The notes beneath the pieces were generated by a model, which saw only the letters and a list, made by a program, of their open reading frames with translations, searched no databases and was not told the origin of the DNA. Source: Candidatus Heimdallarchaeota archaeon (GTDB taxonomy: Archaea > Asgardarchaeota > Heimdallarchaeia > Heimdallarchaeales > Heimdallarchaeaceae). Taken from it: a stretch of 35,270 nt of DNA. This document shows, piece after piece, positions 2,838 through 18,728 of this stretch. Both the position numbers and the translations under genes were made by a program. The DNA is taken from the NCBI GenBank assembly GCA_018238545.1, contig JABCTC010000035.1, forward strand, positions 1 through 35,270. Reading direction: 5' to 3'. Positions within the stretch are counted from its first letter, which is position 1. Every line of letters begins with the position of its first letter.

Positions 2838-4034
2838 CTAGAACTTTACCATTGATAAAACTAAATTAAGTATGATTATACAAATGAAGAACATTCTCAG
2901 AGTATTTAGTATTTTCTTATGCCGTGGATTAGCTTCATCTCCTTTCACATTCAAATACTCTTGTAGAATCTTATCACCATCTGTTATTCCTAAGGGCAAC
3001 ATGTTCATGAATACCGCCATTAAGCTCAGATTCAAACAATAGATTACTTCAATACTCCAGTAATATGGAAACCAAAGGGAAAGCCAATTTACCTTAGGAG
3101 GAAGGTAATCATATATTGTGATTCCCAAATATATTTTCTCACTGTTCACAGTTTGAGATGTTGGATCTGTTCGCGTTGGGATTAAAGAAACATTGTGCCC
3201 ATCCAGCAAAGAGAGATATAACAAGGTCGCATTAACGTATTGGTGTACAAAAACATTGTAATCTTGATTATTCTTGATTTTCATATATTCAATTTTGTTT
3301 GTGCTCTCATTGAAATTACCCATTTCTTGAATTACATCTCCTTTAATTAGATTAGAGATATCCGCAGGATATTCTTCATATATTTTTGTTACAATAACCC
3401 CGTCTGCACCAGAATAGCCAGCTGAAAGGATTACTGGAGTTAAGAGATAAAGTCCCAAGAAGAGAACAGACATTATTGCATTAATGGTCGAACCATTTAG
3501 TAGAACTTTAATTCGACTTTTTTTAGTTGCTTTGGCCATGCTTTCAATTACGAGTTCTACAAAAGCACCAAAGAAGATAAAAAATATAAAAATCCCAGAC
3601 GATTTTAGTTCAATTTCCTCTCTCTTAGCCATGACCGCATGACCTAATTCATGTGGTATGATAACAAAAAGGATTGGAATTATAAACAATAAGGATGTTT
3701 GAAAATCAACTGTAATTCCTGGAATAAGTAATTGCATTCCTAGTGCTCCGGGGACATCAAACAGTATTAGAAAAGGGTTCACCAGAAAATACACGACAAG
3801 AACAAGTACAATTAAACCAGTTAACACTTGTCCAATTCTATAAAGAACTTGCCAAAACTTCTTAAATTTCTCTCCAAGTTTGGACAATATTTTGTTAAAA
3901 AGCTCTGTTCTGAACATTACTCCAAAGGGATAAAAGTTAATTCCAAATCTTTCAAGTTTAAAGAAACTTCCAATGGTTGTTAGCAACATTAATGAAAGTA
4001 TAACAATGATTACAATTTGGAGTGTTGTTAACAT
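2838..4034 (-). CDS. Site-2 protease (peptidase M50) with PDZ-like insert
   Basis: HELGH zinc motif, GAFVE, NMLPLGITDG (NxxPxxxxDG), multiple TM segments, GVIVTKIYEEYPA...GDVI PDZ-like region. Confidence 0.9.
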   Translation of the reverse strand: MLTTLQIVIIVILSLMLLTTIGSFFKLERFGINFYPFGVMFRTELFNKILSKLGEKFKKFWQVLYRIGQVLTGLIVLVLVVYFLVNPFLILFDVPGALGMQLLIPGITVDFQTSLLFIIPILFVIIPHELGHAVMAKREEIELKSSGIFIFFIFFGAFVELVIESMAKATKKSRIKVLLNGSTINAIMSVLFLGLYLLTPVILSAGYSGADGVIVTKIYEEYPADISNLIKGDVIQEMGNFNESTNKIEYMKIKNNQDYNVFVHQYVNATLLYLSLLDGHNVSLIPTRTDPTSQTVNSEKIYLGITIYDYLPPKVNWLSLWFPYYWSIEVIYCLNLSLMAVFMNMLPLGITDGDKILQEYLNVKGDEANPRHKKILNTLRMFFICIIILNLVLSMVKF

Positions 4035-12225: not shown

Positions 12226-13125
12226 TTAAATTAAACCTCGCTCCATGAGGACCTTAAATTCATCCAAAGTTAATTTGCTTCCCTCTTTAAATCTACCAAG
12301 TATTTCAGCAGCCCTTGCGTCCAATTTTTTGTCTCTTGTGCGCTTAGCCTCAACCCTTCTAGCTTTTCTAACAGCATGAAGTTCAATTCCAAACTCATTA
12401 GAGAGTTTTTTAACCTCTTGAGTTAAACCATCAAGCGTTTTACGAATTTCAGTTATTTGAATGCTGAGGGATATTACTTCTGCATGGGCAGCATCTGCTT
12501 CCTCTTTGATTTTTCTTGCTTCTTTGGTAGCTTTAAGCATTTTTTCTTGATGAATTTGAGATTCTTGAGCAAGTGTTGTGACACTTGTATGATATGTCTT
12601 AATCTCGGTTTGCATATGTCGAAGCTTATTTTGAATGTCGCGTACTTCGCTTCGCAAATCCTTGAATTGTTCAATCTTCTCAAATTCTGCACTTAGTTCT
12701 TCTAATTGACTAAGTGAAGTTTTTTCCATTTCTTTTGTTAAAAAGGGAGTCGTTTCTAACTGTCTTTCTAGACGACGTATTTTTTCTCCTACCCTTCTGT
12801 TTTTTGGAACTCCAACATTCTTCATTTGCGATCCTAATTCGATAAGCCTCTTAGCTATCTTGTCTGCGTCTTCTCGCAGAATATCTCGCATCTGTTTGCG
12901 AACTTGAACTTCCTCATTTATTTTATCTCTTAGCCCCTTTGAAGTTTTGGCTTCATTGAACAAATCTTTAGCTTGTTTGTTCTTTTGATCCCGGCTGCTT
13001 CTGATTTCATTGCGTTTCTCATTGCATCCTCGGAGCTTGTCAATGAACTCTTTTCGTTTCAATCTTAGTGAACCTAAATGCTCTTTCTTTTCTTCCAAGT
13101 TCATTTCTTCACTTTCGACACTCAT
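12226..13125 (-). CDS. Conserved archaeal coiled-coil protein (COG1340-like)
   Basis: Continuous heptad pattern; LE...QLET...LT...E; C-terminal A.EIL.RFK.G.KLTLDEF. Confidence 0.75.
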   Translation of the reverse strand: MSVESEEMNLEEKKEHLGSLRLKRKEFIDKLRGCNEKRNEIRSSRDQKNKQAKDLFNEAKTSKGLRDKINEEVQVRKQMRDILREDADKIAKRLIELGSQMKNVGVPKNRRVGEKIRRLERQLETTPFLTKEMEKTSLSQLEELSAEFEKIEQFKDLRSEVRDIQNKLRHMQTEIKTYHTSVTTLAQESQIHQEKMLKATKEARKIKEEADAAHAEVISLSIQITEIRKTLDGLTQEVKKLSNEFGIELHAVRKARRVEAKRTRDKKLDARAAEILGRFKEGSKLTLDEFKVLMERGLI

Positions 13126-13539: not shown

Positions 13540-13992
13540 TCAAATAAATCTGTATTGAAGTTTCTCTTTGACAGCACCTAAGAGTTTCTCTAGCTCTTCT
13601 AAGCTATTTTCTTCTTTTCTTTTTATGATATTTTCAATTTCTGTCCTATAGTCTCTAAGATCTTTTATATCAGCAATAAAATCCTCTATCTCTTTCTTAT
13701 TTTGATCAATTTTTGTTTGAACATTTCCCATTTCGATGTTTTCATCAATTAGTGATGGGCCATTCTTTTCTTTAGCAATTACTAACTTTGTAACACCTTC
13801 ATCCAGTTTTTTTATTCTTTGATTCATTGTATGAATACGTTGTGTTACGATGACAATTGTATCGTCTGCTCTTTTTAGTATCGGACTCTTTGCCTTTTTT
13901 CTTCTATTTTGAGTGAAATAGATGATTAAGAAAATTACCAATAGAAAAACAGGCACTCCTATACCTAGGCCTAAATATAATGCTACACTCAT
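13540..13992 (-). CDS. Hypothetical protein: N-terminal TM helix, basic stop-transfer patch, coiled coil
   Basis: Hydrophobic residues 3-27, then RRKKAK, then heptad-rich sequence. Confidence 0.6.
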   Translation of the reverse strand: MSVALYLGLGIGVPVFLLVIFLIIYFTQNRRKKAKSPILKRADDTIVIVTQRIHTMNQRIKKLDEGVTKLVIAKEKNGPSLIDENIEMGNVQTKIDQNKKEIEDFIADIKDLRDYRTEIENIIKRKEENSLEELEKLLGAVKEKLQYRFI

Positions 13993-16226: not shown

Positions 16227-17294
16227 ATGTCTATTAAAGATAAGATGAAATTAATAACAAGAAATGCTGAAGAAGTTATCTTAAAAGAAGAAATACAAAA
16301 AATTCTAACTGAAAAAGCAAAACCACGAGCTTATGTGGGTTTTGAGCTTTCAGGATTCCTTCACTTGGGAACAGGTTTAGTAATTGGTAACAAATTAAAA
16401 GATTTAGCAAAAGCTGGATTCGAAACAGTTGTCTTCCTTGCAGATTGGCACAGTTGGATTAATAATAAACTTGGTGCTGATATGGATAAAATCAGGATTG
16501 CGGGGGAGTATTTTCAAAAGGCTTTTGAATCAGTTGGGGTCAAGGGTCCCAACATCAAGTACATTTGGGCTTCAGATTTGGTAGACCGAAGTGAATATTG
16601 GGCCAAAGTAGTGAGAGTTGCGAAGGCAAATTCCATTACTCGAATATTGAGAACCATGCCCATTATGGGCCGAAAAACTGACGGAGAAATGGAATCAGCT
16701 TTTCTCTACTATCCTGCTATGCAAGTCGCAGATATTTATGATATGGAGATTGATTTAGCTGTTGGTGGCATGGATCAGAGAAAAGCTCATATGCTGGCAA
16801 GAGATACAGCTGAAAAGTTAGGTTTTACAAAACCTTCATGTCTTCATACCCCCTTACTGACAGGTTTGGAAGGGTTAGGAAAGAAAATGGATGCGGAAGC
16901 TGTCCCTGATTTATCCACACAAATCGACGCAAAAATGAGTAAATCTAAACCAGATACTTGTATCTTTATTCATGATAGTGAAGATGATATATTTCGAAAA
17001 ATCAAAAAAGCTCAATGTCCTCCAAAACAAGTTGTTGGTAACCCAATCACAGAAATGGTACAATTTATTGTCTTTGGCATGAACCCAACTTTCAAAATTG
17101 AAAGAACTGAAAAATTCGGTGGTGATATCACCTTCAACAACTACAAATCTTTTGAGGAAGCATATCTCAAAGGTGATTTGCATCCCATGGATCTTAAATC
17201 AGCTGTATCTAAATCTTTAGGGGATATTCTGAAGCCTTCAAGAAACTACTTTGAAAAACATGTAGATATAATTGAAGAGATAAAGGATTTTTAG
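16227..17294 (+). CDS. tyrS: Tyrosine--tRNA ligase (archaeal type)
   Basis: AYVGFELSGFLHLG (HIGH-like), FLADWHSWINNK, YPAMQVADI, GGMDQRKAHMLARD, KMSKS, LHPMDLK. Confidence 0.96.
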   Translation: MSIKDKMKLITRNAEEVILKEEIQKILTEKAKPRAYVGFELSGFLHLGTGLVIGNKLKDLAKAGFETVVFLADWHSWINNKLGADMDKIRIAGEYFQKAFESVGVKGPNIKYIWASDLVDRSEYWAKVVRVAKANSITRILRTMPIMGRKTDGEMESAFLYYPAMQVADIYDMEIDLAVGGMDQRKAHMLARDTAEKLGFTKPSCLHTPLLTGLEGLGKKMDAEAVPDLSTQIDAKMSKSKPDTCIFIHDSEDDIFRKIKKAQCPPKQVVGNPITEMVQFIVFGMNPTFKIERTEKFGGDITFNNYKSFEEAYLKGDLHPMDLKSAVSKSLGDILKPSRNYFEKHVDIIEEIKDF

Positions 17295-17314
17295 TTTTTT
17301 TCTTCTTTTCTTTT
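17295..17314 (+). terminator. Oligo-T terminator after tyrS
   Basis: TTTTTTTCTTCTTTTCTTT directly after the stop codon. Confidence 0.55.
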
Positions 17315-17340
17315 GTATCAGATAAAAAACTTCAAGATAC

Positions 17341-17596
17341 TAAAGGAGATAAGATATATTGCCTTTATCGAGGACTTTCTAGAGATGGCGATGCCGACTA
17401 GGAAAGAAAGTGCAAGGAAAAGGCTACATTTCCGCTATCAACGGGCTCTTTCCTTAGTTGAGTGTAACACTCAATACAATGACGGTGAGTCAACCCTAGC
17501 GGGATACAGTTGCTCCTGAGGCGCTCAACTGGTGGATATGGGATATTCCCCTTAAAATGAAACCAAGGGTTAACCTCAGGGGCATATCTATCTGAT
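17341..17596 (+). ncRNA. Unassigned ~250-nt structured RNA candidate
   Basis: GC-enriched intergenic island with a string of hairpins; G-U wobbles favour the + strand; T-tract at 17596-17600. Confidence 0.55.
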
Positions 17597-17657
17597 TTTT
17601 CAATAACAATAGGAAACAGAAAAAATAAATACTTATCAGTTAAACAATCACTGCTTA

Positions 17658-17736
17658 GGGGCAGTGATCTAGCTTGGCCCATGATGCCACTCTCACACAG
17701 TGGATGTCGCAGGTTCAAATCCTGCCTGCCCCACCA
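17658..17736 (+). tRNA. tRNA-Val (anticodon CAC), CCA encoded, no intron
   Basis: Acceptor GGGGCAG/CTGCCCC, anticodon arm CCACT-CTCACAC-AGTGG, T arm GCAGG-TTCAAAT-CCTGC, discriminator A then CCA. Confidence 0.97.
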
Positions 17737-17759
17737 ATTTTAGAAGTTGTGCAGCAGAA

Positions 17760-18728
17760 ATGACCCCTAGCTCAAAAAACAAGGAATTCTCATTCATTGA
17801 TTTATTCTCGGGAGCAGGAGGTTTTAGTTTGGGTTTTGCACAAGAAGGTTTTAGGGATTTACTTGCTATTGAAATTGATAATTCTGCAGCTCAGACATAC
17901 AGCTTTAATTTTCCTGATACACCAATGATGAAGGCTGATATTCGTACCATTCACTCTTTACAGATTGAGTCAAAAATAAGTGAAACACCAGATGTTATCC
18001 TTGCTTCTCCACCTTGTGAACCTTTCACTTCTGCTAATACAGCTAGACAAAAAGACCCATTTGATAGATTTTACACGGATCCCAAAGGCGATTTGATTTT
18101 GCATGCAATACGAATTATTGGTGATTTATCTCCAAAGTTTTTCGTAATTGAAAATGTTATCCCCATAGTGAATGGTATTGGAAAAGAGTTGATTTCAAAT
18201 GCACTTGAGAAAGTGGGTTTTGAAAAAACATATTTCAATGTCATTAACGCTGAAAACCATGGGTGTCCAAGTGAAAGAATTAGAGTTTTTATTAGTAATA
18301 TACGTTTGAAACTTCCAAAGCAGAGAACTATTACTACTGCTGAAGCTATTAATAATCTCCCCGAACCATCTTATCCGAATGACTTTCCAAATCATTTTTC
18401 TCTTTTCTTTCCAAAGAGAGTGAGTGATAAAGTACACCGAATAAAAAAGGGTGGGGCAGCAATTTATTTCTCTGGAGCTGTCGAAGAAAAAAGAACTTGG
18501 ATAAAACTTGATGCAGAAAAAGTAGCTGACACTATTATGGGTAAATCTCGCTTTATTCATCCCTTTAAAAATCGCCCCATGACTGCAAGAGAACACGCTC
18601 GTTTGATGAGTTTTCCTGATGCGTTTGTTTTTACTGGCAAAGTTGATTCAGTTTTTAATCAAGTTGGAGAAGCTGTTCCACCAGTTATTTCGAGGCAGAT
18701 CGCAAAAATTGTAAAGCAAAAATTATGA
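17760..18728 (+). CDS. Cytosine-C5 methyltransferase, orphan, archaeal type
   Basis: Motif I DLFSGAGG, IV SPPCEPF, VI IENV, VIII PSERIR, IX/X MTAREHARLMSFPD...QVGEAV. Start moved to ATG 17760 because the ORF-track start lies inside the tRNA. Confidence 0.9.
   Translation: MTPSSKNKEFSFIDLFSGAGGFSLGFAQEGFRDLLAIEIDNSAAQTYSFNFPDTPMMKADIRTIHSLQIESKISETPDVILASPPCEPFTSANTARQKDPFDRFYTDPKGDLILHAIRIIGDLSPKFFVIENVIPIVNGIGKELISNALEKVGFEKTYFNVINAENHGCPSERIRVFISNIRLKLPKQRTITTAEAINNLPEPSYPNDFPNHFSLFFPKRVSDKVHRIKKGGAAIYFSGAVEEKRTWIKLDAEKVADTIMGKSRFIHPFKNRPMTAREHARLMSFPDAFVFTGKVDSVFNQVGEAVPPVISRQIAKIVKQKL

Follow-up and report, generated by a model that had tools for sequence, protein, structure and literature searches.

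Genomic context of the locus

The window, by which we mean the whole stretch of 35,270 nucleotides analysed from a Candidatus Heimdallarchaeota genome, carries a non-coding region between a tyrosyl-tRNA synthetase gene and a tRNA-Val(CAC) gene that very likely encodes a three-hairpin box H/ACA guide RNA (Table 1). The preliminary description of this DNA had pointed to the GC enrichment of the region and to the T-tracts on either side of it, and both are there, with a GC content of 47% in the island against 35% in the whole window and 22-24% in the flanks. The plus strand folds better than 200 of 200 shuffles (z -3.16), whereas the fold of the minus strand is weaker and unconvincing against shuffles (z -1.53); as the boxes and pockets are also readable on the plus strand only, we rejected a minus-strand RNA.

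Table 1. Features of the guide RNA locus, in window coordinates
Feature	Coordinates	Strand	Elements or basis
tyrS, upstream neighbour	16227..17294	+	NF006330 tyrosine--tRNA ligase, E 1e-127
Putative BRE/TATA-like promoter element	17324..17338	+	A-run then TTCAAGAT; ~29 nt upstream of RNA start
Predicted three-hairpin box H/ACA guide RNA gene (Pab40/HgcG orthologue)	17360..17586	+	RF00064 whole-model match, conservation, covariation
Motif 1	17360..17428	+	Lower stem 17361-66/17419-24; upper stem 17374-80/17405-11; pocket 17367-73 and 17412-18; tandem GA 17382-83/17402-03; ACA 17426-28
Motif 2	17430..17508	+	Lower stem 17430-37/17497-504; apical stem 17457-75; pocket 17438-46 and AACCC 17492-96; K-turn-like 17455-56/17481-82; ACA 17506-08
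Motif 3	17512..17586	+	Lower stem 17512-21/17574-83; pocket 17522-27 and GUUAA 17569-73; K-turn GA 17535-36/17559-60; AUA box 17584-86
T5 tract past last box	17596..17600	+	Sequence; T-runs downstream in most homologues
tRNA-Val(CAC), downstream neighbour	17658..17736	+	Own BRE/TATA-like element at 17617-17631

The ends of the gene, and with them its length of 227 bases, are placed by the extent of conservation and the position of the final ANA box. Among homologues, conservation sets in sharply at UGCC (17360) and stops after about 17586, so that the start first proposed, at 17341, lies upstream of the conserved RNA. All 29 loci have a TATA-like word at -27 to -29, followed by a freely variable spacer up to the RNA, a pattern consistent with a promoter element at this position. 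A scan for sigma-70 promoters, with a model unsuited to archaea, gave no match. At the other end, the T5 tract is likely an archaeal terminator.

The neighbourhood is itself stable. Synteny with tyrS is kept in most genomes of the genus, and the nearest TyrS relatives (64-90% identity) come mostly from Candidatus Heimdallarchaeota genomes, AB_125 among them, which places the host among the Heimdallarchaeia of the Asgard archaea. The tRNA-Val(CAC) gene comes in two clearly distinct sequence types at one locus within the genus, one of 75 nt and one of 78-79 nt, as seen by comparing the gene at 17658 with homologous loci L012, L013, L016, L022 and L031. A gene for a Dcm-type C5 methyltransferase (17700-18728, likely start ATG 17760) lies 3' of tRNA-Val across the family at 53-92% identity, a stability of synteny unusual for a restriction-modification gene, and a relative with 33% identity adjoins the guide RNA in one distant family (L189, L193). 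Elsewhere in the window, two coiled-coil proteins are encoded upstream of dnaG (12226-13125 and 13540-13992), with DUF7121 and weak ArlX/ATG16-like matches, the latter under the cut-off.

BLASTN recovers the RNA in 28 of 29 other family genomes at 71-96% identity, with one copy per genome, nearly always directly 5' of tRNA-Val(CAC). Within its own genome there is one full copy, and the next match covers 29 nt (E 0.04). This single copy and its fixed position beside tRNA-Val speak against a MITE or IS remnant, the possibility for which a BLASTN check had been proposed. A small antisense coding gene would account for the 106-aa open reading frame on the minus strand at 17398-17718, but stops interrupt all three antisense frames across the element in the homologues checked, and Pfam returns no match. 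We give almost no credence to either of these origins.

A covarying three-hairpin fold

Across 25 homologues, a stem-pocket-stem fold is paired in 92% of cells and 24 of its 50 pairs have changed on both sides, against 40-55% paired cells and 3-6 covarying pairs for slid controls; the homologues are kin, and the shuffle control for covariation yields no probability. For stems and boxes we used motif-anchored counts, which sidestep local misalignments, and by these the lower stems are near-fully paired. The earlier proposal of a single-copy, conserved and structured non-coding RNA gene is thus borne out by its presence across the family and by its covarying fold.

Each hairpin carries a pocket, a K-turn-like motif and a basal box in the layout of the published H/ACA determinants (PMC4652768). 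The distance from box to pocket top is 14, 14 and 15 nt for the ACA, ACA and AUA of motifs 1, 2 and 3, and the K-turn-like motifs stand at a distance of about 10 layers. Boxes 1 and 2 are ANA in all 25 homologues, the former at a distance of 14 nt from the pocket in 23 and 15 nt in two, the latter being ACA or AUA at 14 nt throughout. Box 3 is laxer: an ANA is at the expected place in 5/25, with AUU in 13, ACU in three, ACC in two and a shifted box in two. The tandem GA of motif 3 is invariant (25/25). The K-turn bulge of motif 1 is UAG, versus the usual N-A-U, and the motif 2 K-turn-like motif is built here of A.G and U.A, the U.A being found in four of 25 homologues and G.A in 19. The minimum-energy fold of motif 2 closes part of its 5' pocket. 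No part of the RNA is better conserved than the pockets, which are invariant or nearly so.

The preliminary description had arrived at a partly different fold. All of the motifs that it quoted are present in the DNA at the positions given, and three of its stems belong to the conserved structure: the GGC/GCC cap, TTGAGTG/CACTCAA and the long stem at 17511-17584, with 97-98% of cells paired and compensatory changes. Others fare worse among the homologues. The 5' arm of TAAAGG/CCTTTA is unconserved and upstream of the RNA, and CCUUU pairs with AAAGG at 17419-23; TTTCTAG/CTAGGAA pairs in 14 to 25 of the 25 depending on position, where the register ACUUUCU/AGAAAGU reaches 24-25 at six of seven positions; AAGGAAA/TTTCCTT is 51% paired; TGAC/GTCA has no change on both sides; and CCC/GGG pairs in 8/25 at two of its three pairs. 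The basal stem of motif 2 had been overlooked, as had the ANA box and the K-turn-like motif of each hairpin.

That description also took the element for a novel stable RNA class unrelated to H/ACA, possibly pseudoknotted, a view that finds some footing in the lack of any Rfam match to the element at the gathering threshold and in the formal complementarity of 17456-64 (AGTTGAGTG) to 17522-30 (CGCTCAACT), paired at 81% in homologues. The pseudoknot, however, has no compensatory pair, and its covariation score is reached by 500 of 500 shuffles. Three ANA boxes, K-turn-like motifs and rRNA-complementary pockets in the Pab40 order cannot, moreover, be chance. We therefore regard a new class as very improbable, and return to the H/ACA guide.

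Relationship to HgcG/Pab40

The Rfam model of HgcG/Pab40, RF00064, matches 17303-17591 over model positions 1-276 with E 2.8e-12, partly within the AT-rich promoter region, which the model includes. At 48.2 bits the match stays under the gathering cut-off of 77 bits, and by E-value the RNA is a HgcG/Pab40 homologue, outside formal Rfam membership. The preliminary description could match the element to no known class and had set H/ACA aside, while holding that a strong Rfam match to a known family would speak against novelty. In substance there is such a match, though with a score short of the cut-off, and together with the full three-motif anatomy and the Pab40/Pf7/Afu4 sites in 23S rRNA it assigns the RNA to a known family.

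At the gathering threshold, Rfam returns only SRP RNA (804-1110) and tRNA-Val in the whole window; the archaeal SRP RNA barely exceeds its own gathering score (96.7 against 96.5). Sub-threshold Rfam matches to mir-198, snoZ107, YenS and ZL1 (E 0.7-4.6) are chance. When family genomes were searched with the HgcG model, three relatives scored 45-52 bits; this count of 3/29, in which the genome studied here was itself missed, is no measure of absence, as the pre-filter scores few candidates.

With a covariance model built from the family, homologues turn up within the class in two more families, in 20/22 and 2/2 of their genomes, and elsewhere in the phylum in six additional families. Three of the distant copies match HgcG themselves (E 1e-9 to 1e-5), and the three-motif order and the pocket words are preserved in distant homologues. 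A model of motif 1 found 0/3 in family f4 and 1/12 in family f6, the latter marginal (E 0.05, without a clear hairpin), counts that we do not read as absence.

Most other Asgard families have an additional K-turn-like element around motif 1, made up of a gc-AUGA-purine tract before the motif and a UCCNGAGC-like sequence after its box. The Heimdallarchaeaceae copy lacks this element and for that reason is the shorter RNA. The motif 1 flanks in those other families (loci L184, L185, L187-L190, L192-L194, L196, L205-L207 and L209) are complementary to 23S rRNA immediately 3' of the site aimed at by motif 1 (GCUC-UUCCU), so that they may serve as an additional pocket or as a guide of a C/D-like kind.

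Predicted targets in 23S rRNA

The 23S and 16S rRNA genes of the same genome are both present in its assembly, and we scored both pocket strands against all 1073 U. The two genes lie on opposite strands about 2.2 kb apart (16S at C86:10306-11816, 23S at C86:14042-17457), and the 23S gene has 3416 bases against the 2987 positions of its model. Upstream of domain V it contains AT-rich inserts, probably introns or expansions.

The best site of motif 1 is base 2975 (GCUUGC-U-A-CCUCGAU), a unique best with 13 contiguous pairs; that of motif 2 is base 3065 (GGGUU-U-A-GACCGUUG), with one G.A mismatch next to the target; and that of motif 3 is base 2018 (UAAC-U-A-UGAGC), in helix 69. Shuffled pockets reached the top score in 2/1000 cases for motif 1, 6/1000 for motif 2 and 40/1000 for motif 3, nulls that are somewhat generous, the pocket limits having been chosen with the likely sites known. 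In E. coli numbering these bases are U2496, U2586 and U1915; the E. coli 23S sequence aligned has 2903 nt, one under the standard 2904, so that raw 2495, 2585 and 1914 correspond to standard 2496, 2586 and 1915. We are highly confident in U2496 as the predicted target of motif 1, nearly as confident in U1915 for motif 3, and consider U2586 a probable target of motif 2. The placing of GGGUU-U-AGA at 2586, by alignment of the genome's own 23S to that of E. coli, is at odds with a published equation of H. volcanii 2605 with E. coli 2572 (PMC5029457).

In an unlikely, though by no means negligible, alternative, the RNA is the same H/ACA RNA but motif 2 and/or motif 3 is inactive or redirected and acts mainly as a chaperone for rRNA folding or as a scaffold. 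The U.A in the motif 2 K-turn of this subclade would fit such a role, as would a motif 3 box that is non-ANA in 18 of the 25 homologues, and there is a precedent in P. abyssi, where replacing G by U in the K-turn of Pab40 motif 2 altered folding and target (PMC2377435); both changes fall in the same K-turn, at positions that may not be exactly the same. On the other hand, the pockets are hardly altered, and the motif 2 pairing in this subclade has lengthened to 6 bp (CAACGG with CCGUUG), with no better target in the genome's own 16S or 23S; the alternatives considered for motif 2, in the U2554 loop and in the 16S, offer no comparable duplex. Single stem-loop guides with typical UN pairing can do without the ACA box, which the dual-site SL2 of Haloferax volcanii sR-h45 needs (PMC7075261).

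As a whole, the observations are best explained by an independently transcribed H/ACA guide of about 227 nt with three hairpins, an orthologue of Pab40, Pf7 and Afu4 predicted to direct Cbf5 pseudouridylation of 23S rRNA, and we hold this with strong confidence. Cbf5, Nop10, Gar1 and L7Ae are all encoded, each over its curated cut-off. L7Ae would bind the K-turn of each hairpin, and Cbf5-Nop10-Gar1 its lower stem and ANA box. The internal loop would pair with 23S rRNA on either side of an unpaired UN, and Cbf5 would turn the unpaired U into pseudouridine, at U2496 for motif 1 and U2586 for motif 2, both near the peptidyl-transferase centre, and at U1915 in helix 69 for motif 3. What we computed are the sequence, its conservation, the covarying fold, the box spacing, the complementarity to the genome's own rRNA and the four protein genes; from these we infer the transcription ends, the assembly of the RNP and the modifications. 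As a weak hint of expression, two RNA studies of close relatives yielded metatranscriptome contigs that fall entirely within the element (17372-17567 and 17389-17532), without marking its ends or strand. The RNA data are contigs only, and we give no weight to the missing coverage of the flanks. Contigs of two RNA studies that bridge into tRNA-Val may represent read-through or DNA.

Co-variation with helix 69 and loss of hairpins

Between Asgard families, the motif 3 pocket tracks the sequence of helix 69 lineage by lineage. In all nine family genomes for which rRNA is available, helix 69 reads GGAGCUAACUAUGAGCUUC; the family's motif 3 pocket is (G)AGCUCA. Two distant families have GGGAGUAACUAUAACUCUC, a pocket AGAGAAC and an ACA box, and this pocket appears to leave UAUA unpaired, much like the dual-site mode of sR-h45 SL2. 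The pocket of Heimdallarchaeaceae pairs U1917; from this pairing, and from the small share of homologues with an ANA in place at box 3, we infer that motif 3 has turned into a guide for U1915 alone.

The other families of the order have C at position 2586 in 10/10 genomes read and C at 1915 in 8/8 read. The motif 1 model finds hairpin 1 in eight genomes of these families (L220-L227), six of them without a further motif and two (L225, L226) with a decayed second hairpin that lacks AACCC; one lone hairpin still stands upstream of a tRNA-Val-like gene. This matching loss of hairpins may amount to one or two events and carries no statistical result, the genomes being kin and incomplete.

Taken jointly, these patterns could reflect co-evolution of guide and ribosome in Heimdallarchaeia, a tentative reading that we put somewhat short of even. 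Helix 69 of the family would have been rewritten (stem GGAGCU/AGCUUC), and motif 3 would have passed from a dual UNUN pocket to a single typical one with a relaxed ACA box; the sister families with U1915 and U2586 changed to C would have dropped motifs 2 and 3, with a guide of one hairpin remaining. If this is true, ribosomes of the family carry pseudouridine 1915, with 1917 supplied from elsewhere or lacking, and the near-universal pseudouridylation of helix 69 was reshaped or given up in lineages near the ancestor of eukaryotes.

Discussion

The RNA is a diverged Heimdallarchaeia copy of a known archaeal guide RNA, and involves no new class or mechanism. Its description fills an annotation gap, since Rfam at its own cut-off misses it, and widens the range of the Pab40 guide, three targets included, to Heimdallarchaeia. 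It follows that the guide probably predates the split of Euryarchaeota and Asgard archaea. The work also yields three site-level predictions open to rRNA modification mapping, and documents co-variation of guide and target alongside matching hairpin loss in sister families. In the literature that we searched, with incomplete coverage, we found no study of Asgard H/ACA guides.

Pab40, Pf7, Pho40 and Afu4 (RF00064) share with our RNA the order of three motifs, the K-turn in every upper stem and the ANA at 14-15 nt (PMC2377435, PMC4652768), as well as the pocket words CGAGG/GCA, AACCC and GUUA. In P. abyssi, Pab40 motif 1 directs pseudouridine 2588, a modification observed both in rRNA and in vitro; motif 3 directs 2016 in helix 69 in vitro, and for Pf7 and Afu4 the expected site of motif 2 is the equivalent of 2678 (PMC2377435). 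The targets predicted here match these published sites in order (P. abyssi 2588, 2678 and 2016, in the published numbering), and the first two are 90 nt apart in both systems (2975/3065 here, 2588/2678 in P. abyssi; PMC2377435). Motif 2 of P. abyssi itself acts at 1932, a site that we do not predict. Compared with the Pab40 group, the stems are AU-richer; the 5' pocket of motif 3 is GCUCA rather than GGUUA, matching the rewritten helix 69; and its box, AUA here, is mostly decayed in relatives.

The sR-h45 RNA of Haloferax volcanii consists of two stem-loops homologous to motifs 2 and 3, which guide 23S pseudouridines 2605 and 1940 (PMC7075261, PMC2584109). Motif 1, present here, is missing from it, and its spacer is long. 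With UNUN left unpaired, its SL2 acts on both uridines of helix 69; in our RNA, by contrast, the pairing of U1917 predicts modification of U1915 only.

The P. abyssi 2588 and 2016 sites are conserved pseudouridines in eukaryotes (PMC2377435). With eukaryotic H/ACA snoRNAs our RNA has the chemistry and the protein core in common. Those snoRNAs have two hairpins and an ANANNA H box, lack a K-turn and use Nhp2 in place of L7Ae; among them are yeast snR191 and human U19 for helix 69, and yeast snR46 for the 2496 site. Set beside them, the Heimdallarchaeaceae RNA has no eukaryote-like feature and is a guide of the archaeal type.
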